44,344 nucleotides of DNA from Candidatus Micrarchaeota archaeon. Lineage in GTDB: Archaea; Micrarchaeota; Micrarchaeia; Norongarragalinales; SBBD01. The translations under genes and the position numbers were made by a program. The notes under the pieces are model-generated. The model ran no database searches, had not been told where the DNA came from, and saw nothing but the letters and a program-made list of their open reading frames with translations. The DNA is taken from assembly GCA_043807785.1 (NCBI GenBank), contig JAZDFO010000068.1:1-44344 (forward strand), in the 5' to 3' direction. Numbering within the stretch: position 1 is the first letter of the stretch; each line of letters starts with the position of its first letter. This document shows positions 17,557-44,083 of the stretch, one piece after another.

Positions 17557-18315
17557 TCAGAGGCCTTCTTTTTTCAGGCGGTTTAGGACTTTGCCAAAAA
17601 CCAATTCGAAGTCTGGAACTCGCCTTAGGAATTGGCGGAGGTCTTCATCCCACTTGGCCTTGAAGTTTGGCAGCCGTAAGCTCAACCCCGGCAAGTCCGG
17701 TTTTTCATGATAGTAGTCGAGTTTCTTGAGGATTAGGGCCGGGTCCAGGCGCACGTTGTTTTCGAGCAGGAACCAAACGTCGTACAAGTCACGGGCGGCA
17801 GTGCGGGAAAACACTGCGTGGACTTTTTCGGCAAGGATTTCCTCTAACGCGAGGACCCGCAAGGGAAAGCCGCCGAGTTCATAGGCGTCAACTACCTGCT
17901 TTTCAACCGGCTGTAAAAACGCGTTTTCCCTTAAACTGAAGTCGAAACGCACGCGCTGCGGCTGCTGGAGAAAGGAATTGAATTTAAGGAATACTCGGAG
18001 CCCCTCGCTGGTTTTCTCGTGCTTGGTTGCGGTAAACCGGATTCCGTGCAGTTCCTTGCCTTCGAAAAGGCCCTGGATTTCAGACCGCGCCTTGGCTTGC
18101 GTGATTGCCGGAGCGTTGAAGTCGAGGTCTTCCGAAAAACGCGCCTGCGGAAAATAAATTTTCTTGATGGCGGTCCCGCCCTTGAACACGAGGCCGGCGC
18201 AAAGCGGGGATTGCGACAGCACGGAGAGGACAACGGAAAGCGCGTAGTCCTTCTCGACGATGGCCTGCGGAATCCCCTCGCGCGCGGCCATTCTCTTGAG
18301 TTGCGCCAAGTCCAT
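17557..18315 (-). CDS. abiEii: Nucleotidyltransferase toxin, AbiEii/AbiGii family
   Basis: 252 aa. VFKGGTAIKKIYFPQARFSEDLDF is the hallmark motif. Starts 3 nt after the AbiEi-like gene. Confidence 0.85.
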   Translation of the reverse strand: MDLAQLKRMAAREGIPQAIVEKDYALSVVLSVLSQSPLCAGLVFKGGTAIKKIYFPQARFSEDLDFNAPAITQAKARSEIQGLFEGKELHGIRFTATKHEKTSEGLRVFLKFNSFLQQPQRVRFDFSLRENAFLQPVEKQVVDAYELGGFPLRVLALEEILAEKVHAVFSRTAARDLYDVWFLLENNVRLDPALILKKLDYYHEKPDLPGLSLRLPNFKAKWDEDLRQFLRRVPDFELVFGKVLNRLKKEGL

Positions 18316-18318
18316 CGT

Positions 18319-19128
18319 TTAATATCCCTGCCTGAAGTTGAGAAGCTGCTTTTCTTCGAGGTTCAATTTTAACCCCCACTTTTTGCTGTATTTGATGGTG
18401 TGCTTGGGGCCGGAGGGGTCGAGCCAGCGAAAGCCTTGAAACGAGCCTTCCAGTTGCTTGGCATGCCTTTTGAAGCCCATGAGTTCGAGAATGTAGCCGA
18501 GGCGCCGGCGGACGACGTGCTTTTCTGCTTTTGCCAGCGAAACGAGCTTGCCCCAGTCCAGTTCACTGGCGGCGGAGTGAATGGCTTCGGGGGCTGCCGA
18601 GACGCCCAGGCAGTATTGGGGCAAGCGCAGGCAGTCGATTATCGTCTGCTCGCGGGTGGAGACGTTGACTTCGGTACCGCCGAGTTTAACTTGCGTGAAT
18701 TCCCCTAGTTCGCGTTTTTTCACGAAAACGAAGGTGGTCTGCACCGCCTTGACGCTCTTCTTCTGGCGGTTTAGGGCCACGAAGACGGTCATGGGAATTT
18801 GCGTGGTCATCCCCCAATGGTTCAACGCGGACAAAAAGCCAATGTAGTAGTTCTTGGTGTTCGCGAGCGCGGGGGCGACTAGGAAGGAATGCTCCGACCA
18901 TTCGCCTTTGGGCCCGCTTTTTAGGGGAGCGAACAGGTAAGAGCCTTTCTGCAGGCGGATGACGCGGTTCTTTTTCGCCAGCCGCGAAAGCACGTTCTTC
19001 ACGGAGGCGGCAGTGCCTTTCAGAATCCTTTTCGCATCCTTGAACGAAAACAGCCCGTTGTTGCGCTCCTCCAATGCGAACAGGAGGGCAAGCTCCCTCT
19101 CCCCAAAACGCATTTTAGGTATAACCAT
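18319..19128 (-). CDS. abiEi: AbiEi-family antitoxin / wHTH transcriptional regulator
   Basis: Track ORF runs to 19152 (TTG start). ATG candidates are 19128 (MVIPKMRFGERE) and 19113. N-terminal wHTH: FSFKDAKRILKGTAASVKNVLSRLAKKNRVIRLQKGSYLF. Confidence 0.8.
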   Translation of the reverse strand: MVIPKMRFGERELALLFALEERNNGLFSFKDAKRILKGTAASVKNVLSRLAKKNRVIRLQKGSYLFAPLKSGPKGEWSEHSFLVAPALANTKNYYIGFLSALNHWGMTTQIPMTVFVALNRQKKSVKAVQTTFVFVKKRELGEFTQVKLGGTEVNVSTREQTIIDCLRLPQYCLGVSAAPEAIHSAASELDWGKLVSLAKAEKHVVRRRLGYILELMGFKRHAKQLEGSFQGFRWLDPSGPKHTIKYSKKWGLKLNLEEKQLLNFRQGY

Positions 19129-19147
19129 AGTATCGCTTAACGATACT
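19129..19147. promoter_or_regulatory. Perfect 7-bp inverted repeat between the TATA box and the abiEi start (candidate operator)
   Basis: AGTATCG-CTTAA-CGATACT. The TATA-like CCTTATATAC (minus strand) is at 19161..19170. Confidence 0.35.
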
Positions 19148-19221
19148 TTCAACGTTCAAAGTATATAAGGTTTTCGGCTGCCCCGGGACAGCTTGGACGT
19201 CCTCGCTTTCTTCCTCGATTC

Positions 19222-19986
19222 TCACGCCAATTCAACCTCTGCGGGGGACAAGTTTAGGTAAATCCTCCATTTTTTCGCTATCGCATCGAGCTCCTTGGGC
19301 TGCTTCCTTAAGTCCTTAGGATAGACACTGAATTCCCGGTCGTCCTTTTCAGTGCGCTTGAATAAACCGTCCCTTAGCGCGGTTATTATCTTTCTCGTGC
19401 GCTCGCCTTCAACCCCCTTTTCAAGCAAAATGTCCGCAACCGCCCCAAAATACCGGTAATCGAATGAATTAAGCCTTTTAACAACCTCCGAAAAACGGGT
19501 CTCCCCTGATTGCAGGAACCTTGAGGCAAAAGCGGTATCGCGGGCCTTAATCCGCTCTGCGGCAAACGAGGAATCGTCGTATTTGCCTTTCCTTATGGTC
19601 ACTAATTGAGTGCCGCCGGGCTTGAACAGCGTTTTATACGATTCAGCGGGCGAGTTGGTGAATATTACCTGCGTGCCCGACGGCATGTAACCCATTTCGG
19701 CGGCAAATGCCGGTGATCCGACCAGCTTGTTTGTCGGAATTTGCTCGCCAATAAGCGAGAGTTCCTCGATTGAGGCCAGCAGCCGGTATTTCTTGGTGCG
19801 CCAGTCCCCGTCAAGCCGTTGCTTGGCGATTATTCCCTTCTTCCCGAGCTCGTTGAGCACCTTCCATGCCGCGGTCTGGGGATAGGCCAGCCTTTCCATC
19901 GCTTCCTCAATGGTGAAGTACTTCTTTTGCCCGAAAGCATTAAGCAACCCGGCGTAGGCGTCGTACTCCCACTTCTGCAACCTCAT
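19222..19986 (-). CDS. wHTH-domain protein with an uncharacterised C-terminal domain
   Basis: 254 aa. N-terminus YFTIEEAMERLAYPQTAAWKVLNELGKKGIIAKQRL. Starts 26 nt downstream of the SWIM gene on the same strand. Confidence 0.5.
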   Translation of the reverse strand: MRLQKWEYDAYAGLLNAFGQKKYFTIEEAMERLAYPQTAAWKVLNELGKKGIIAKQRLDGDWRTKKYRLLASIEELSLIGEQIPTNKLVGSPAFAAEMGYMPSGTQVIFTNSPAESYKTLFKPGGTQLVTIRKGKYDDSSFAAERIKARDTAFASRFLQSGETRFSEVVKRLNSFDYRYFGAVADILLEKGVEGERTRKIITALRDGLFKRTEKDDREFSVYPKDLRKQPKELDAIAKKWRIYLNLSPAEVELA

Positions 19987-20012
19987 AACATCACTTGAGT
20001 AATTTGCTCAAG

Positions 20013-20981
20013 TCAGGTATTTAAGGCTTTCGGGAGCTTGCGTTCCTTTTTTCGCCTGGCCAGAAAATCCTCTAGCGCCTCCTTCTTATAGCCGTCGCTC
20101 TTACCGATTTTCTCACGTACTCGGCCCTCGATTTGCGTCCACTCTTCGGCGGTTGCGCAGGACAATATCGCGTCTTCTGCGCTGGGGACAAGGTCTAGCC
20201 CGCCCAAGTCAACGTCAGCCAGTACGGAGTCCAGGAGGATTCCCAGCCATTCTCGGCGGGTTTGTTTGTCCGGCGAACCCTTGGCCAGGCACTTGACTAA
20301 GCCTTCCGCGATTTCATCCACTGCGCAAGCGAGTTCGCCTTCTTCATCCATTTCAAGCAATGTGCTGCCATAACGGCGGGTGGCTTCAGTAAGAAGCATG
20401 GCATAGATCGTGCCTGCGGCAAGCCAGCCGTCGGACTCCACCAAATCATCCGCCATCCCGCAAAGATTCTGCAAGCCCGCTTCGATGGCCCTGCTTGAAC
20501 CTTGCTGCAAAGCGCGCAACGCCAGGCGGTGGAACGTGTTTACGTCTACCATGCCCTGGCGGGATGAAGCGGAAAATTCAGCTATATCAATCAAATGGGG
20601 TTCTTGCTTGACCATTTCGCCGACGAGAGCAATAAGTTCGTCTTTTGTGAATTCCGCGAGCATTGAGGCAAACGGCGGGAGCACGCGGATTGATTGTGGC
20701 TTGCGGGCTAAGCTTAAGAGGAGGGCGACAATGTGTTTGCAAAAGCCGCCGCGGGGGCAATCGCAGGAAGCCTTCGCAACCCTGTTTTTATTTAAAATGA
20801 CGGAAACATTGTACGGTTCGCGCGCAGAACCCTGGCAGGTTGTACGAAGTTCCTTTCCCAGCAAGACTGGCTCAAAAACCCTGTTCTCTAAAAAGTATTT
20901 ATTGCCTCGCTCGAATGATTGGGCGTCCGAAAGCTTGCGGACCGACGCTTCGGTAAGCCGGGGCAACGCGTTCTTTACCAT
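20013..20981 (-). CDS. SWIM zinc-finger protein
   Basis: 322 aa. CDCPRGGFCKHIVALLLSL fits CxCx(n)CxH. GGAGG lies 6 nt upstream of the ATG. TTTTATA box at about 21027..21036. Confidence 0.8.
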   Translation of the reverse strand: MVKNALPRLTEASVRKLSDAQSFERGNKYFLENRVFEPVLLGKELRTTCQGSAREPYNVSVILNKNRVAKASCDCPRGGFCKHIVALLLSLARKPQSIRVLPPFASMLAEFTKDELIALVGEMVKQEPHLIDIAEFSASSRQGMVDVNTFHRLALRALQQGSSRAIEAGLQNLCGMADDLVESDGWLAAGTIYAMLLTEATRRYGSTLLEMDEEGELACAVDEIAEGLVKCLAKGSPDKQTRREWLGILLDSVLADVDLGGLDLVPSAEDAILSCATAEEWTQIEGRVREKIGKSDGYKKEALEDFLARRKKERKLPKALNT

Positions 20982-21229
20982 AAAACCGCCTCCTTCGCTT
21001 CGATCAAAACCATTGGATACTACGCCGGGTATAAAAGTCGATGCTTAAGCGCCTCGTTTTGCCAGTCGTTTTATTTGCGCGTCAAGAATCATGCCAGCAC
21101 CGATTGTTTTGTAATCTCTGCGTTCAATACCAGGTTCCATTTGCTGTCGTGCTTTCCCTTCGATTCTGAGCCTTACGGTATCGCGTCTTTTGCGCCGGGC
21201 TCTTGTGGCGGCATGGTAGCCGGCAGTCA

Positions 21230-21260
21230 GTCGGGAAACCGGCTTTGAGGTCGGGAAACC
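21230..21260. repeat. 11-mer GTCGGGAAACC repeated with 20-nt phasing
   Basis: Copies at 21230..21240 and 21250..21260, in the spacer just 3' of the DUF3368-like gene. Confidence 0.7.
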
Positions 21261-21266
21261 CAGCCT

Positions 21267-21779
21267 TTAATCTGTTGCCTGCGCGGCCTTGCGGATGGCT
21301 TGTGCGATGTTCTTGTAGGTTTCGACGTCGCAGTACCAGCCGGCGTCAACCATCGCATCCAACAGTTCTAACGCCTTTTCGCCGGAAAACGCCTTCCTCC
21401 TCACGCCGTCAATCAAGAGCGCCGTGGAATGCGCGGTTGCAATGCCGTTCGCTGCAGCAAACCGCCTGGCGGGCTCGTCGTCTACGACTGCAACGGCCTT
21501 GAGCCGCCTTGCAAGCAGGATTACGCTGACGTCCGCGCTGCTTAGCCCCGGCTCTTCCCCTGCCTTTGCAGGCAGAACGTCGAGCGCCTTTCCCTTGATT
21601 AGGACAGATATGTGCATTGCTTCCGGGAACTGGTTTTCATCCAGCCGGAGTTCAAGGACTACTTGTCGTGTTGTAGCCAGCTTCCAGCCTAGCTTTGGCA
21701 GGTATTTCCAGAAGCCGGCGCGCGTTAGGTAAATGAGCGGCGTTGCGTCCAAGACCAGCGTTTTGCGCACAAAATGCAC
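21267..21779 (-). CDS. PIN-like nucleic-acid-binding protein (DUF3368 type), putative toxin
   Basis: 170 aa. LVLDATPLIYLTRAGF, AVAVVDDEPARRFAAANGIATAHSTALLI. Confidence 0.7.
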   Translation of the reverse strand: MHFVRKTLVLDATPLIYLTRAGFWKYLPKLGWKLATTRQVVLELRLDENQFPEAMHISVLIKGKALDVLPAKAGEEPGLSSADVSVILLARRLKAVAVVDDEPARRFAAANGIATAHSTALLIDGVRRKAFSGEKALELLDAMVDAGWYCDVETYKNIAQAIRKAAQATD

Positions 21780-30064: not shown

Positions 30065-33658
<3,594 letters not shown>

Positions 33659-33693: not shown

Positions 33694-34524
33694 CTATATG
33701 GTATAGCGATTCCTTGGCGGGATTTTGGCCCCGCGCGCGGTCATCTCGTAGAGTACGCGCAGGCTTTCGTAGCTGCCTTTGCGGTTTTGCGGCTGCTGTG
33801 GCTTAACCATCCGGTATTCGAAGCCCGTGCCAAGCGCTTCCTTGAGCCTTTTTACCAAAAACGAGCCGGCGCCGAATTTTTCCGCAAGGTTTTCCCCGGC
33901 CTGCCTCCAGCGTTCCTCTTGGCTTTCGATGCCTTGCACGCCAGTAACCGAAACCACTTTCCTGCCGCCATCGACGTGGAAATTGAACGCAATCCTGCCG
34001 ATGGGAGCCTTTCCGCGATACAGCCGCAGCTGCCAGAGCGCTTCCGGGCAGGCAGGCCAGCCGATTTCGTCCTTGCCATGATCGTATCGGTTGGTGCGGA
34101 CAAGCTCAATCCGATATCCCTTGCCGGGTTGTGCCAGCGCGTCGAACTTTGGCGCCTCCTTGCTGCCCACGTCCAGGTTGACAACTGCGCGCGCTAGCTG
34201 GCGAAGCGCTTCGAGGGAACGGTACTCCCCGAACCCGTGCCTCACGCTGAAATACTTTGAAAGGTAGTGCGCGCGCAAAGCGCTCTCATAATGCCTGCCA
34301 TTGTGTTCTTCGCGCAATGGGCGCAGAATGCCTTCTTCGCGCAGGCGCAGGTGCTGGTACACCAGCCTCCAGCGCGGGTCGCTTTCATGCAGTATCGTGT
34401 GGAAAACGCGCAGGCTTTCCCCGTGCAGGTCAGGCAGTTTCGCACCCTTTGGCGGCTCGCGGTCGATGCCCTCGTGCGTGAGGATCCGGTCGAGCGGGTT
34501 GCGGAATCGGGTGTATCCTTTCAT
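33694..34524 (-). CDS. Hypothetical protein, no recognisable family
   Basis: 276-aa ORF with balanced composition, convergent with cdc48. Confidence 0.5.
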   Translation of the reverse strand: MKGYTRFRNPLDRILTHEGIDREPPKGAKLPDLHGESLRVFHTILHESDPRWRLVYQHLRLREEGILRPLREEHNGRHYESALRAHYLSKYFSVRHGFGEYRSLEALRQLARAVVNLDVGSKEAPKFDALAQPGKGYRIELVRTNRYDHGKDEIGWPACPEALWQLRLYRGKAPIGRIAFNFHVDGGRKVVSVTGVQGIESQEERWRQAGENLAEKFGAGSFLVKRLKEALGTGFEYRMVKPQQPQNRKGSYESLRVLYEMTARGAKIPPRNRYTI

Positions 34525-36211: not shown

Positions 36212-37846
36212 TTACGCCTTTTGGCTCGATTTTTTGTCGGCTGACGTGATTTCGAGTATGCGGTCGAGCCGGAACACCCTCTCTGCCTGCCGCTTGAAGC
36301 AAAATGCCTTCATTCCAAGGTACTTCTTTCCCATGTACTCCATTTCGCCTACTTCCAGCGGCTGTACCGTGCGCTTGCTTTTCACGTCACTGGCCTTCAG
36401 ATAGACTATTTCCAGCGGCGTCTTGTTTTCAATCGCCTCTTCCACGAGCTCGGTTTTGCGTTTGAGCGGCGTCTGCTCTTCCGCCTTGCCGTATTGGTAG
36501 CTTGTAGTGAACTTGACGACCCTCCAGTCGGTGAAAACGTGTTTTTTCTCAACCGGTTTTTCGAGCGTTATGCCCTGCAGGGTGCGGCAGCGGCTCAAGG
36601 CGACGTAGAGCTGGCCGGGCGTGAACGTGCCTCTTCCGAGGTTGACGTGCACCCTATCGAAAGTCTTGCCCTGGCTCTTGTGGATAGTCACCGCCCACGC
36701 GAGTTTCATGGGGATTTGCGTAAACGAGCCGATGGTCCTGGAATCCAACGCCGCCCTTCCCTCGTTATAGAAATACTCGAACACGGTCCAAGTGTGTGGC
36801 GTCACTTCAACCCCGAAGCCATTCTGCAGCACGACGTTTACGCACTCCTTTTCCCCGCGTTGGCCAAAGCCAGTCACTTCCCCGACAGTGCCGTTCACCC
36901 ACCGTCCTGCGGCATCGTTGTTCAACATCATTATTTGCGCGCCTTTCTTCACGCGCAGCAGCTCGCCTGCAGGGCAGTGGCCTTCCTTGAATCCGCCTTT
37001 GATTACTGCCTTGAATTCGTGCGCCGGCGTCTTGAGGGAGGACAAGTGTTGTTCGTTGATGCCGTCCGCCAAGTCGTTGGTCGTAGTAAGCGTGACGCAG
37101 AAGCCGTCGTCCGCCTGCTTGGATTGCGGCAGGCAGCGTCGGTTGAGCGCGCGCAGCTCGTTTTCGCCGACGGTGTTGTTCCGGATGGCGTTTAGTAAGC
37201 TTATGAACGAGTCGTCTTTCTGCCGGTAGATTTTCTCGAGCTCGACGTACCCGAAGTTTGCCGGCGAGAAGGCCTTCGAGTCGAAAAAGTATGGGCTTCC
37301 GTAGTGCTCGCGGAACAAGTCTCTTTCCTTGCCGGTCACGACGGGCGGGAGTTGGTACAAGTCGCCGAAGAAAATCATTTGGACGCCTCCGAACGGCTCG
37401 TTTTTCTTCCCTCGGTTGAGTCGCAGGGACTTGTCCATGCAGTCGAGCAGGTCGGCGCGCACCATGGAAGCCTCGTCGATTACGAGCGCGTCGAGTTCTG
37501 CGTAGAGCGTTATGCGCTCTCCCCACGCCTTCTTGATTTTGTTGGGCGTAATGTCTGGCTTGAAGCCGAAGAAGGAGTGGATGGTTTGCCCGCCGACGTT
37601 GACTGCCGCCACCCCTGTAGGCGCCAGCACGGCAACTTGTTTGCCGGTTTTGGTTGTGAAGTAGCTGAGCAACGTGGACTTTCCGGTTCCTGCCTTGCCG
37701 GTCACCAGCACGTTATCGCCAGTCCCTTCCATGAGCTGCATGGCCTTGGAAAACTCGTCGTTGAAGTCTATTTCCTCGGGTTTCAAGCCCGCTGCCGTAT
37801 TCCCCCACGGTTGCTGCGCATCCGGCGCGCTTTCCTTTGAACTCAA
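36212..37846 (-). CDS. Pif1/RecD-family (SF1B) helicase with a C-terminal WYL-like domain
   Basis: 544 aa. VTGKAGTGKSTLL, LVIDEASMV, FFGDLYQLPPV, TIHKSQG. C-terminal KRTVQPLEVGEMEYMGKKYLGMKAFCFKRQAERVFRLDRILEI. The start is uncertain: TTG at 37846, and the first ATG lies after conserved N-terminal sequence. Confidence 0.85.
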   Translation of the reverse strand: MSSKESAPDAQQPWGNTAAGLKPEEIDFNDEFSKAMQLMEGTGDNVLVTGKAGTGKSTLLSYFTTKTGKQVAVLAPTGVAAVNVGGQTIHSFFGFKPDITPNKIKKAWGERITLYAELDALVIDEASMVRADLLDCMDKSLRLNRGKKNEPFGGVQMIFFGDLYQLPPVVTGKERDLFREHYGSPYFFDSKAFSPANFGYVELEKIYRQKDDSFISLLNAIRNNTVGENELRALNRRCLPQSKQADDGFCVTLTTTNDLADGINEQHLSSLKTPAHEFKAVIKGGFKEGHCPAGELLRVKKGAQIMMLNNDAAGRWVNGTVGEVTGFGQRGEKECVNVVLQNGFGVEVTPHTWTVFEYFYNEGRAALDSRTIGSFTQIPMKLAWAVTIHKSQGKTFDRVHVNLGRGTFTPGQLYVALSRCRTLQGITLEKPVEKKHVFTDWRVVKFTTSYQYGKAEEQTPLKRKTELVEEAIENKTPLEIVYLKASDVKSKRTVQPLEVGEMEYMGKKYLGMKAFCFKRQAERVFRLDRILEITSADKKSSQKA

Positions 37847-37883
37847 TCTGGTTTCGCCCGCCTTTTACAATCCGTTTTCCGAT

Positions 37884-39287
37884 TTATTCCCATAGCAGCT
37901 TGGTTTGTCCTCCTGCCCTGCCCCTCGTCTGGCTGACGTGCAAAAGCAGGGGAAAGTTGTTCGTGCATTTTCCTATTGCGATGCATTGCCCGACGCCGAG
38001 GTTCTTGACGATGCCAAGGCTAGCGGGGTCGATGACTTGCGCGCTGGACACGAAGGCGATGTCGTTGTCGGAGGAGAAGTTGAATGTGAACAAGTTGTCG
38101 CACTGGCGGAAGACCATGGAAGGCAGCGTCGTTGGCTCGTTGGTGATGATGACGGAGTAGATGCCGAGGTGGCGCATGCGCGTTATCACGTCGTCCCAGA
38201 ATTCCTTCTCGAAGTAGTTCTGCGCCTCTTCCGCGAAGAGAAAGATCTTGCCTTCGTCCCGCAAGCCGGCGCTGATAAGCTGCCGCAGGATGTAGACGAT
38301 TGAAAGCTCCTTGACCTTCTCGCCTTGGCGGAACATGTTCAACACTACCGCGCCGCCAAAACGCGCTTTTTCCAACGCCTGCCTGAAGTTGAATTCCCCA
38401 AAGACGCCGAGGCTCGCCGCGTAGTCAATGCGCGCCAGCGCCGCGTTCATCGAGCCGGGAGTGCTTTTGCTCAATTCCACCCATTGCTTTAAGTCTTTGA
38501 GGCTCTTGCCGGCAGCGTTTTCCGCCCAGTAGCGTGCGAAGAGGCGGAAGGCGTTGTGGTTTTCCTCGATTTGGCACATGCGCGCGAACGTCTCGAAGCT
38601 GATGCCGTCGAGGGGAATGAAGAAGTTCCTGCCGGGAACGAGTTCGACGATTCCGCCTGCAAGCCCGCTCTCCCCGCCGTTTTGCAGGTTCTTCAGCGAC
38701 GCGTATTCTCCGTTGACGTCCAAGACGACCGCCGGCGCGTTGTTGGCTAAGAGCTCTTCCAGCAGTTTCTTTGCCAAATGCGATTTTCCGCTCCCCTTCC
38801 TTCCGGTAATAAGCGTGACTCCCTGCAGGCTGGCCAAATCGATGGCGAAATCCAGGCCCGAGCCCTGCATCTTGCCTATATTCGCCGGCTTTTTCGGTTC
38901 GAAGCCCAGCAGGGATACGATTTCCTGCTCGCTGAGCCTTTTGACGGCCGCGTTGTCAGCGGGAAGCTTCAGTAACCCGGGCGAGAACCTGCCTTCCTTG
39001 ACCGTTCCGCGTATCTTGCATTTGGCGAGGCGGAAGGAAGACAATTGCCTGCCGTATTTGTCGTTGATTTCGCGCGCAAGCTCCGCGTTTGGGCCTTCGA
39101 GGCTGTCGAGCAAGTCGGTGAACACTTTGCGCAGGCCGCCGTACTGCAAGTCGTACGCCTGTGCGACCACCTGCATTTCGCCGTCGGAAACCAGCACGCA
39201 GTCGCCGATTTTGAGCTTGTCGCCCTCGCCGAAGGCCACGCCCAGCTCGTCGCCGTGCTTATGCAATACTTTCAGCCCCCCGGCCAT
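37884..39287 (-). CDS. HerA/FtsK-like (DUF87-type) P-loop ATPase
   Basis: Walker A TGRKGSGKSH and Walker B-like KIFLFAEEAQNYF. N-terminal barrel-like GDCVLVSDGEMQVVAQAYDL. The ATG at 39287 is preceded by GGGGGA. The alternative ATG at 39362 abuts the upstream stop (TAGATG). Confidence 0.8.
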   Translation of the reverse strand: MAGGLKVLHKHGDELGVAFGEGDKLKIGDCVLVSDGEMQVVAQAYDLQYGGLRKVFTDLLDSLEGPNAELAREINDKYGRQLSSFRLAKCKIRGTVKEGRFSPGLLKLPADNAAVKRLSEQEIVSLLGFEPKKPANIGKMQGSGLDFAIDLASLQGVTLITGRKGSGKSHLAKKLLEELLANNAPAVVLDVNGEYASLKNLQNGGESGLAGGIVELVPGRNFFIPLDGISFETFARMCQIEENHNAFRLFARYWAENAAGKSLKDLKQWVELSKSTPGSMNAALARIDYAASLGVFGEFNFRQALEKARFGGAVVLNMFRQGEKVKELSIVYILRQLISAGLRDEGKIFLFAEEAQNYFEKEFWDDVITRMRHLGIYSVIITNEPTTLPSMVFRQCDNLFTFNFSSDNDIAFVSSAQVIDPASLGIVKNLGVGQCIAIGKCTNNFPLLLHVSQTRGRAGGQTKLLWE

Positions 39288-39362
39288 CGCTTTTCCCCCG
39301 GCGGGTATTGGGCTTGGGAAGGAAGAAAAACCTGCCGGCACCGCGTTTCCCCTAGGCGGCAT

Positions 39363-39668
39363 CTAAAGCATATCGAGTTTTTTCTTAAGCGCCTTGGCCG
39401 TTTCGTAAATCCGCAGTTCTCTGGCCTTCGGACTCACTCCGTACCGTTTGGTTGGAGCTCCTGTCGGAGATTTCCCCGGCACTTCAGCAACGATTCTCTT
39501 TGCCTTCATTTCTTTAAGGACCTTGGAAAGCCCCGGCTCCGTCAGTCCAGTGGCGACCACGAGCTCTGACCAGCTTCTGGGCTCCTTGTGGGTGGCTTGC
39601 AGCACCTTGTAGGTCGAATCCCGCATCAGCAACGCCACCGCTCCCCATTCAGCAGGCTTGTATCGCAT
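39363..39668 (-). CDS. Small winged-helix (ArsR/MarR-like) DNA-binding protein
   Basis: 101 aa. RSWSELVVATGLTEPGLSKVLKEMKAKRIVAE. First gene of the cassette. Confidence 0.65.
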   Translation of the reverse strand: MRYKPAEWGAVALLMRDSTYKVLQATHKEPRSWSELVVATGLTEPGLSKVLKEMKAKRIVAEVPGKSPTGAPTKRYGVSPKARELRIYETAKALKKKLDML

Positions 39669-39681
39669 GACATTGAAAACA

Positions 39682-39723
39682 ACTTAACTCGATTTAAGCC
39701 GATTACTTGTCTATCAGTTAAGT
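39682..39723. promoter_or_regulatory. 8-bp inverted repeat (ACTTAACT / AGTTAAGT, 26-nt spacer) next to a bidirectional TATA box
   Basis: Repeat arms at 39682..39689 and 39716..39723. TATATAAAAA at 39724..39733. It lies between the divergent genes at 39668 (minus strand) and 39775 (plus strand). Confidence 0.35.
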
Positions 39724-39774
39724 ATATAAAAACAGTCGTAGCAGTTATACTCAGCCAATTTGGGCGGTGAGAGT

Positions 39775-42276: not shown

Positions 42277-42549
42277 TTGAAGGGGCCATGCCTGGAGCCG
42301 GGGCAATACCAGTCCGGGCATTCGGATGCGCTGCTGGAACTTTTCAAGCAATACCTCGTGACGGACGAGAGATATGTCGCGCGGCTCAAGAGGCATTACG
42401 AAATGTTCAAGGCAAAGGTTCGGGAAATTGCGGGAAAGCAACGACTCTCAGAGAGCGCAGGCCGTGAGAGCGTGCCGAAAGCCGGCAGGAACGATTCATG
42501 CCCGTGCGGCTCCGGGAAGAAATACAAGAAATGCTGCCTGAAGCAGTGA
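42277..42549 (+). CDS. Small SEC-C motif protein
   Basis: The C-terminus [18 protein letters not shown] is the SEC-C metal-binding motif. Start uncertain (TTG at 42277). Confidence 0.6.
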
Positions 42550-42918: not shown

Positions 42919-43115
42919 AGAAGGCTGCGAAATCGCTGGCGAGGGAGTTGGGGCGCCGTGATTTTTTTGTAATTGTTTAGGAACCGAGGGCGTTGCTACT
43001 TCTACTAATCACGCCCTGGGCACAAGCCTAGCCGTTGGCTAGACGCCTCAATATCGGTTGCATCAGAATGCCGAATTTGACGCCACCTATAAATTACCCT
43101 TTGAAAAAGAGCGCG

Positions 43116-43739
43116 TCAATCATTTTTATCGTAAATCCTTTGCGAAAATTTATTTGCATTTTCAAGAAATATGCTGCTGATACTCAGAACATATTGTTTT
43201 TTCATAAAATTATATCTGCGGGAAAAATAATATGAATCCGGGCCGAGGGAAAGGGGGTATTGAAATTCTTCCCCCAGTTTTTTCTCGTTACTAGTTAATG
43301 CTTTCTTACTTTCAGCGAGGTAAGCCGCTGCAGAAGCTTCTGAATTGAAGGAAGTCATGAAAATCGAGTAACTGTCCTTGCCATCCTTGCAAATGACTGC
43401 CTTGCTATCCACACAGCCGGGAATCTTCTCAATCTTGTATTCGCGGGCAGTATCTGGAAGGGTTGCGCAGAATTGCCGAAAGTCGGATGGAATGAAATCT
43501 GGAATACTTTCATCGCCTATCTTGGACAATGCCGCAGATGTAGGCATGCCACTCCATTTGACCATCTGTTCGATGTATCCTGCAGGCAACTTATCGGTTG
43601 ACGGAACGGGGTTTGAAATAGTCGTCGGAAATGGAGAAAGAATCGGAGTAGCCGTAGGTTGGACTTGATTTTGGCTAGGAGTGCTAAGACATCCTACGAA
43701 GATAATGAGTAAAGTAACCAGTCCAATTGATTTAATCAT
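43116..43739 (-). CDS. Lipobox protein, unknown function (low-GC region)
   Basis: Track ORF runs to 43820. The ATG at 43739 gives MIKSIGLVTLLIIFVGC, followed by a Pro/Thr/Ser-rich linker. Confidence 0.5.
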   Translation of the reverse strand: MIKSIGLVTLLIIFVGCLSTPSQNQVQPTATPILSPFPTTISNPVPSTDKLPAGYIEQMVKWSGMPTSAALSKIGDESIPDFIPSDFRQFCATLPDTAREYKIEKIPGCVDSKAVICKDGKDSYSIFMTSFNSEASAAAYLAESKKALTSNEKKLGEEFQYPLSLGPDSYYFSRRYNFMKKQYVLSISSIFLENANKFSQRIYDKND

Positions 43740-44083
43740 ATTTATCGGAAAAACTATTCTTAACGTCAATAAAAAGGCCTTACTTCGCTGGAATAGATTC
43801 AATTTCCAGATTTTTGGCACCGCAGTGGCAAATTTGGCACGAATTCTAATGAGGCCCTGGCTGCAATACTATTAGCTGTCGCTGGAAAGGCGGCAAGGTG
43901 CATAATCGTGTAAACGATGGCCCGCGTTGGTTTTACTGGCTTTAGCATTTTTGGCCTTTGCCTATGTTCGCCTCGTTTTTTGACGAGCGGGAAGTGCAAG
44001 CTATAAATAGCGGTTTGGCAAGACCAGCCACGCCAAAGGTGGTCAAAGGAATAACGCGAAAAACGAGTAAAAATTAGTCAAAG

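Follow-up and report, generated by a model that had tools for sequence, protein, structure and literature searches.

The window analysed here, a contig of 44,344 bp from a metagenome-assembled genome (MAG) of Candidatus Micrarchaeota, contains three neighbouring genes on its minus strand, which according to open reading frame (ORF) analysis follow each other in the order winged helix-turn-helix (wHTH) protein, HerA-type ATPase and Pif1-family helicase with a C-terminal WYL domain (Table 1). A first-pass annotation of this DNA had proposed that these co-directional genes form an undescribed defence or mobile-element module. All three ORFs were recovered at the positions it had given, the helicase does begin 37 nt past the ATPase, and the three domain assignments (wHTH, DUF87/HerA and Pif1 plus WYL) are correct, with a weak match for the first of them. 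The proposed three-gene module is not supported, as the cassette is not conserved. The GC content is 0.55-0.58 inside the three genes versus 0.37 in the intergenic region upstream of them, and the cassette matches its flanks in GC content and is unremarkable in this respect. The spacer between the ATPase and helicase genes contains TTGTAAAA about 20-27 nt ahead of the helicase start codon, and it may hold a promoter of its own or the two genes may be co-transcribed. The products of flanking genes are a DUF4352 lipoprotein, a HEAT-repeat protein, a YgjP-like metallopeptidase and a small SEC-C protein.

The ATPase matches the DUF87/HerA family (PF01935) with an E-value of 6e-17 and 62.9 bits (cut-off 23.2). 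Its Walker A motif GRKGSGKS (38781-38804) and Walker B-like motif FLFAEEAQ (38220-38243), both noticed in the first pass and located again in the sequence, fall into invariant columns of an alignment of 18 ATPase sequences. A model generated with AlphaFold2 (AF2) from 18 homologues (predicted local distance difference test, pLDDT, 86; predicted template modelling score, pTM, 0.83) assigns residues 6-49 and 86-118 to the strands of an N-terminal beta-barrel, behind which lies a RecA-like core. The best fold match of this model in the PDB is HerA of Sulfolobus solfataricus (4D2I), which aligns over the full length with template modelling (TM) scores of 0.74/0.76 and about 500 columns; the second best is HerA in the HerA-NurA complex of Thermococcus kodakarensis (9X1M), and TdpA and the longer anti-phage HerAs (Sir2-HerA, DUF4297-HerA) rank after it. 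In sequence, the ATPase is remote from every one of these. Archaeal HerA is a hexameric ring that pumps double-stranded DNA. Judged by its sequence and predicted fold, the window protein is a HerA of the archaeal type, and hexameric translocation along double-stranded DNA is presumed from the family. It has the same DUF87/HerA core, Walker motifs and N-terminal barrel as 4D2I and 9X1M and is similar in length (467 aa versus about 460-500 aa), whereas it is only about 16% identical to 4D2I and stays far under the NCBIfam equivalog cut-offs for HerA, with 25-46 bits against 800 (25.3 bits for HerA_Thermprot and 45.7 bits for HerA_antiphage, NF042943).

Several other assignments of the ATPase were considered and rejected. 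The possibility, raised in the first pass, of a conjugation or viral packaging ATPase embedded in an integrated element was discarded, since matches to TrwB, FtsK, VirB4 and TraG are limited to P-loop stretches of 40-50 residues. The Ced DNA-import ATPase CedD was rejected as well (45.7 bits, cut-off 600). PADLOC returned weak matches to HerA and to mad8, the latter model aligning with the ATPase core at E 5e-14; a search for other mad genes among the neighbours of the ATPase gave no match to the MADS defence system. The start of the gene was also revised. The first-pass annotation had placed it at the ATG that abuts the wHTH stop codon (TAGATG). The corresponding longer ORF (37884-39362) was rejected, as all ATPase homologues and the public annotation begin at MAGGLKV, and in the closest relative (locus L011) the 65 nt upstream of the ATPase retain about 90% DNA identity, with two indels of 1 nt each, and contain no in-frame start. 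These sequence comparisons make the ATG at 39287 (MAGGLKV, 467 aa) the most likely start, and the wHTH and ATPase genes are therefore separated by a leader of 75 nt.

The helicase matches PIF1 (PF05970, E 5e-28) and, at about 36245-36451, WYL (PF13280, E 2e-9; 37.7 bits, cut-off 21.8), and the motifs GKAGTGKST, LVIDEASMV and GDLYQLPPV listed in the first pass are all present. Pif1 entries of the PDB are matched with E-values from 1e-184 to 1e-44: residues 25-534 of the 544 align to residues 4-514 of SsPif1 (Sulfurihydrogenibium sp., 8BNS, E 1e-183), and DdPif1 of Deferribacter desulfuricans (8BNV) is aligned as well. The WYL-like tail does model as a WYL/Sm-like fold, which the first-pass annotation had named as a point to be checked: the model of the last 107 residues (pLDDT 82) comprises two helices and a five-stranded barrel, and its top PDB matches are the WYL domains of BrxR, PafBC, CapW and DriD (root-mean-square deviation of 2.1-2.6 Å), followed by Hfq. 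The family is very large and its sequence conservation good, with more than 8000 matches, among them proteins 55-59% identical from Margulisbacteria, WOR-3, Elusimicrobia, Chloroflexi, Aenigmarchaeota and Woesearchaeota. By these sequence criteria, the window helicase is an unexceptional representative of the characterised Pif1-WYL family.

SsPif1, DdPif1 and TePif1 of Thermotoga elfii have been described as Pif1 helicases that end in a WYL domain (PMC9964779). The WYL domain of TePif1 binds single-stranded DNA and is required for the helicase to be fully active (PMC9964779; bioRxiv 10.1101/163188), and 5'-3' unwinding is stimulated by this binding (bioRxiv 10.1101/163188, summarised in PMC9964779). 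The literature places the family among the helicases of genome maintenance, while the cellular role of its prokaryotic members is still obscure (PMC9964779). The window helicase is colinear with TePif1, SsPif1 and DdPif1 (8BNV/8BNX) over the full length, including the WYL tail, and all quoted motifs of superfamily 1B (SF1B) are common to them. It differs in its archaeal (DPANN) host, the other three being from thermophilic bacteria, in an N-terminal extension of roughly 24 aa with a TTG start, and in its position 37 nt behind a HerA gene. This position is not a feature of the family: no gene of the HerA clade was found in 84 other helicase loci (681 kb in total; 37 loci of at least 8 kb). Across the same 84 loci, Pif1-WYL has no conserved neighbour, the commonest neighbour family being present in 8 loci only.

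The 101-aa wHTH protein has a single Pfam match, MarR_2 (E 3.5e-4), at 21.1 bits against a cut-off of 27, and reaches 15.4 bits against a cut-off of 55 with the ArsR/SmtB model. It resembles the small winged-helix regulators of the MarR/ArsR type in size and helix-turn-helix-wing pattern, in its weak matches to MarR_2, ArsR and Csa3 HTH models and in its location behind an AT-rich region with an inverted repeat. Unlike them, it falls below every curated threshold, forms with very few homologues a separate family and is devoid of a recognisable ligand-binding or dimerisation domain. This family is rare, as only 13 matches, about 6 of them true homologues (80-105 aa), were obtained among 1.84 billion cluster representatives. 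Searches with the protein and with a family profile yielded no match in roughly 180 other fetched loci, and the wHTH gene adjoins no other HerA or Pif1 locus among those fetched. It is probably a rare local regulator; it is not a conserved partner of HerA or Pif1-WYL. One homologue, on a metagenome contig of 947 bp (P0244), shares 81% identity over residues 1-54, after which an unrelated domain of about 100 aa makes up its C-terminal part, another sign of recombination in the wHTH family.

An AT-rich promoter region with a TATA box and an 8-bp inverted repeat had been assigned to the wHTH gene in the first pass. The AT-richness stands, as do a TATA-like element (TTTATATA, 39723-39730, minus strand) and a perfect 8-bp inverted repeat (ACTTAACT/AGTTAAGT, 39716-39723 and 39682-39689, 26 nt apart). 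A comparable repeat arises in 5% of shuffles of the region, and 2.6% of the 106-nt windows along the contig contain one; the observed repeat is suggestive and would fit an operator, without being significant alone. The wHTH protein may repress its own promoter via this repeat. A scan for sigma-70 promoters and terminators gave nothing above background, with a model that is not meaningful for an archaeon, and an Rfam scan of the window returned no matches.

The ATPase has few close relatives. In a collection of 5.8 billion proteins, only 10 ATPase clusters reach at least 54% identity, below which identity falls to at most 34% in a large family from Bathyarchaeia, Nitrososphaeria and their relatives. 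Loci were fetched for 76 ATPases of the Bathyarchaeia/Nitrososphaeria type from species-representative genomes and for one of Woesearchaeota, whose ATPase is 55% identical to that of the window, and a NurA profile was built from 80 neighbours. The nurA gene ends at the ATPase start on the same strand in 76 of the 76 Bathyarchaeia/Nitrososphaeria-type loci and in the Woesearchaeota locus, where NCBI names the upstream gene 'DNA double-strand break repair nuclease NurA'; the ATPases encoded right behind nurA are 30-55% identical to the window protein. As nurA lies directly upstream in all 77 distinct loci outside the Micrarchaeota type, the normal state of this HerA clade is therefore a nurA-herA operon. 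In contrast to archaeal HerA, the window ATPase has no nurA, mre11 or rad50 beside it or anywhere in the 44 kb, and its downstream neighbour is the Pif1-WYL helicase instead. With an E-value limit of 10, the NurA profile matched none of the eight distinct Micrarchaeota-type loci (the window, L011, L001, L091, L092, L009, L010 and L095, mostly labelled Micrarchaeota). No other recognisable nuclease was seen in the cassette or in the rest of the 44 kb either, in agreement with the first-pass remark that the cassette contains no NurA or other nuclease. A word-indexed protein search with the Woesearchaeota NurA as query returned only 5 matches, too few to inform on a NurA of Micrarchaeota. The lost NurA adjacency is a mildly unusual feature of this lineage.

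Two further observations were made on the nurA-herA loci. Archaeal-type nurA-herA pairs are present on four contigs labelled as bacterial MAGs (L016, L020, L054 and L064, with the labels Acidiferrales, Acidoferrum, Krumholzibacteriaceae and Limnocylindrales), reflecting either mis-binning or horizontal transfer. In addition, 51-52 of the 76 Bathyarchaeia/Nitrososphaeria loci (L015-L090) have one or two small proteins of about 160-170 aa with a C-terminal winged helix encoded ahead of nurA-herA, about 1.5-2.3 kb upstream of the ATPase. They fall into two families that are related to each other (hhalign probability 97%) and may be dedicated regulators of the operon. Homology of the window wHTH protein to these small TACK proteins was rejected, as only a generic wHTH likeness was detected (hhalign probability 62%, no match of the hidden Markov model).

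The first-pass annotation had suggested checking whether the three genes co-occur in other genomes, and wHTH, ATPase and helicase were not found together at the other loci examined. The ATPase of L011, the closest relative, shows 94% identity at the protein level and 89.6% at the DNA level. Homology between the two contigs begins just past the wHTH stop and breaks off precisely at the stop codon of the ATPase, covering only the ATPase gene and its 65-nt leader. Pif1-WYL lies at most two genes from the ATPase in three of the eight NurA-less loci, each time in a different arrangement. HerA is followed by a co-directional Pif1 in the window; HerA and Pif1-WYL are convergent in L001, with a DEDDh exonuclease between them and a helicase 59% identical to that of the window; and Pif1 precedes HerA in L010, where both are decayed. 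The three loci have no flanking gene in common besides HerA and Pif1-WYL. Because of this, simple inherited synteny explains the recurrence poorly, and with unshared flanks and three arrangements a loose HerA/Pif1-WYL linkage is hard to obtain by chance. In L010 (8875-11028, plus strand), only an N-terminal piece of Pif1 is left, fused to a SEC-C motif, and HerA is split into three ORFs; the window encodes a free-standing SEC-C protein of 90 aa (42277-42549), whose motif is 76% identical over 21 aa to that of the fusion. The first-pass statement that no described system pairs HerA with Pif1-WYL is borne out, in that no paper pairing HerA with Pif1 was found.

Different genes accompany the ATPase in the sister loci. 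A DEDDh exonuclease of 180 aa (motifs DVE, YNRAFD and HDAASD; PADLOC DEDDh, E 8e-19) adjoins it in L001 and L009 and may stand in for NurA there. A SWIM protein of 550-600 aa, whose full length matches the PADLOC candidate PDC-S62 (E 6e-21), shares an operon with the ATPase and with a conserved gene for 96-97 aa; the SWIM gene and this small gene lie downstream of the ATPase in L011 and upstream of it in L092. A MazE-PIN pair lies directly upstream of the ATPase in L095, and TPR proteins are encoded alongside the exonuclease or helicase in L001, L009 and L096. In the window, the scan of the immediate neighbours with PADLOC gave no matches besides the SEC-C motif, and no Sir2 or DUF4297 effector was detected in the cassette and its neighbours by Pfam and PADLOC scans. 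A cluster on the minus strand of the window (17557-21779) encodes an AbiEii toxin (PF08843, E 3e-37), an AbiEi antitoxin, a TrmB-like wHTH protein, a SWIM protein (20013-20981) and a PIN-like protein, the AbiEii/AbiEi pair and the SWIM gene being 17-20 kb from the cassette. Members of these gene families also flank the ATPase in sister loci, and this SWIM protein is 50% identical to the product of the SWIM gene that follows Pif1-WYL and TPR in L096.

Table 1. Features of the wHTH/HerA/Pif1-WYL locus in the window and of partner genes in sister loci. Positions refer to the window unless a locus is named.
Feature	Position	Strand	Basis or remark
Divergent intergenic region, AT-rich	39669..39774	.	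sequence, GC 0.37; putative promoter and operator of the wHTH gene
Small winged-helix-like protein, 101 aa	39363..39668	-	MarR_2 match below Pfam cut-off
ATPase-gene leader, 75 nt, non-coding	39288..39362	-	comparison with L011 and homologue starts
HerA-type hexameric-translocase-like ATPase, 467 aa	37884..39287	-	PF01935; AF2 model and fold match
Spacer, 37 nt, ATPase stop to helicase TTG start	37847..37883	-	ORF coordinates, sequence
Pif1-family SF1B helicase with C-terminal WYL, 544 aa, TTG start	36212..37846	-	PF05970 and PF13280
Cyclophilin-type peptidyl-prolyl isomerase, N-terminal remnant, 32 aa	36085..36180	+	PF00160
DEDDh 3'-5' exonuclease	L001 10489-11031	-	between HerA and Pif1-WYL
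DEDDh 3'-5' exonuclease	L009 7332-7886	+	directly beside HerA
SWIM protein	L011 3228-5161, together with the 96-97-aa gene	+	PADLOC PDC-S62 match
SWIM protein	L092 3938-5919, together with the 96-97-aa gene	+	PADLOC PDC-S62 match

The reading that we prefer, albeit tentatively, is that the locus is not a dedicated three-gene system and instead contains a chromosomal, lineage-specific pair of genome-maintenance genes, for a NurA-less HerA and a Pif1-WYL helicase, that would take part in the processing of DNA ends or stalled forks. Both large proteins belong to known families and the Pif1-WYL architecture has already been described; what is possibly new is that HerA, in a small clade of DPANN archaea, does without NurA and has other partners. 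In the Micrarchaeota-type loci, the adjacency to nurA has been lost, and herA with its own leader of 65-75 nt stands in changing contexts. HerA and Pif1-WYL would at least loosely cooperate: HerA would engage and translocate duplex DNA, and Pif1-WYL, as a 5'-to-3' SF1B helicase whose WYL domain would hold the 5' single strand, would supply the strand separation, which NurA-HerA brings about in another way. Sister lineages have a DEDDh exonuclease at this place.

A number of findings weigh against this reading. The linkage is facultative, given that L011 is devoid of Pif1 within 1.8 kb upstream and 6.7 kb downstream of its ATPase and four further loci of the NurA-less clade are without Pif1-WYL as well, and the three closest relatives of the helicase (68-74%) have unrelated neighbours and no HerA nearby. 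The close ATPase clade is confined to the 10 clusters, with only 4 GTDB species representatives carrying it, and thereby looks accessory rather than part of core repair. In L009, L011, L091 and L095, the ATPase lies next to toxin-antitoxin and abortive-infection genes, and the neighbours found across the sister loci (AbiEii, which together with the SWIM protein adjoins the ATPase in L011, HepT/MNT, MazE-PIN, RHH/DUF3368 and the PDC-S62-like SWIM proteins) have a defence flavour. Finally, a 2026 study proposes that both DNA strands are degraded even by canonical HerA-NurA and that this complex may have an antiviral role (PMC12977600).

A first alternative, which we regard as rather unlikely, is that no functional link exists and that the genes are independent neighbours in a rearranged, compact DPANN genome, with HerA working with a NurA encoded elsewhere and Pif1-WYL acting alone as in bacteria. 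The neighbourhood does bear such marks: the ATPase and its leader are self-contained, with the homology to L011 stopping at gene borders, Pif1-WYL is without a conserved neighbour in its family, and the wHTH gene is found next to neither HerA nor Pif1 at any other fetched locus. The truncated cyclophilin gene is a further sign of local rearrangement. The truncation noted in the first pass is real, the 32 aa encoded at its remnant matching positions 2-44 of the 159 of the Pro_isomerase profile (PF00160, E 1.4e-6); the homology breaks off about 30 nt short of the helicase stop codon, and the C-terminal part was not found in a tblastn search of the window with E. coli PpiB. As the cyclophilin stump and the L011 breakpoints show, the neighbourhood is rearranged gene by gene. 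This alternative accounts less well for the presence of HerA and Pif1-WYL within two genes of each other in three of the eight loci, in three orders and orientations and with no other common flanking gene, or for the joint decay of the two genes in L010.

A role in defence was the other part of the first-pass proposal, and by analogy with Sir2-HerA (Nezha) and DUF4297-HerA the locus could be an anti-virus or anti-plasmid module in which a HerA motor is combined with exchangeable effectors; we hold this to be unlikely. The window ATPase has the HerA-fold motor in common with these systems (fold matches with E-values of 1e-19 to 1e-21), likewise stands beside a neighbour other than NurA and has sister loci with variable neighbours and defence-like surroundings. 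The rare and patchy distribution of the close clade, the homology block of the size of a single gene in unrelated contexts, the flanking toxin-antitoxin and abortive-infection genes, the PDC-S62-like SWIM protein operonic with the ATPase in L011 and L092, the weak PADLOC matches to HerA and mad8 and the proposal that HerA-NurA itself may be antiviral (PMC12977600) all favour such a module. The window locus, however, differs from Sir2-HerA and DUF4297-HerA in having neither of these effectors nor another known one, and its HerA clade has no member with a described defence phenotype. The antiphage HerAs are 560-600 aa long, about 100 aa longer than the window ATPase, and its 467 aa and best fold match fit the archaeal repair-type HerA better; its HerA_antiphage score also falls far short of the cut-off. 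Toxin-antitoxin genes are abundant in DPANN genomes anyway. Moreover, the immediate neighbours in the window are without defence matches apart from the SEC-C motif, and Pif1-WYL is very widespread, mostly solitary and regarded as a genome-maintenance helicase.

With a similarly low probability, the loci can be viewed more broadly, in that HerA would have become uncoupled from NurA in a small, mostly Micrarchaeota clade of DPANN archaea and would serve as the hub of a modular system with an exchangeable DNA-processing partner, be it Pif1-WYL, DEDDh, a SWIM/PDC-S62-like protein or PIN. The window would then represent the variant with Pif1-WYL of a hitherto undescribed HerA machine independent of NurA, serving in defence against foreign DNA or in end resection in reduced genomes.

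The remnant of an integrated plasmid or virus, which the first pass had offered as its second explanation, left no trace in the window in the form of a tRNA gene, a flanking repeat of at least 14 nt bracketing the cassette, or an integrase or transposase among the neighbouring genes, and no relative of the ATPase was found in IMG/VR viral contigs, INPHARED phages or PLSDB plasmids. Insertion of such an element into the cyclophilin gene, with the wHTH protein as repressor and the ATPase and helicase in replication, partition or packaging, is very improbable and largely refuted: the cut in the cyclophilin gene close to the helicase stop, the small wHTH at the head of the cassette and the Pif1-like cores of phages and plasmids (at most 45% identity) would fit it, but the latter are without the WYL tail and stand further from the window helicase than its cellular relatives do, the window does not contain the missing half of the cyclophilin gene, the GC content equals that of the surroundings, and the ATPase clade is nurA-linked and chromosomal elsewhere.

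Apart from this locus, the window contains a few other features. A gene at 30068-33658 (plus strand) encodes a CDC48/VCP-type double-AAA ATPase of 1196 aa, whose first Walker A loop (GPPGCGK / TLLAKAV) appears in translation to be split by an intein-like insert of roughly 480 aa that starts with Cys and ends with His-Asn. An ORF for 276 aa (33694-34524, minus strand) between the CDC48 gene and the fumarate hydratase genes has no match in Pfam or PADLOC, and the same applies to a 234-aa ORF (43116-43820, minus strand) within a segment of low GC content (43000-44000; 0.435 versus 0.52-0.62 elsewhere).

If HerA and Pif1-WYL are not functionally linked, the locus would amount to two known genome-maintenance genes and an orphan regulator placed together by rearrangement, and would be a caution against inferring systems from one gene order. 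If the link is functional, an archaeal HerA motor could work without NurA, with a helicase or another nuclease as its partner, which would bear on the debate about repair versus immunity for the archaeal HerA complexes (PMC12977600) and would provide a first hint at the cellular role of the prokaryotic Pif1-WYL helicases.

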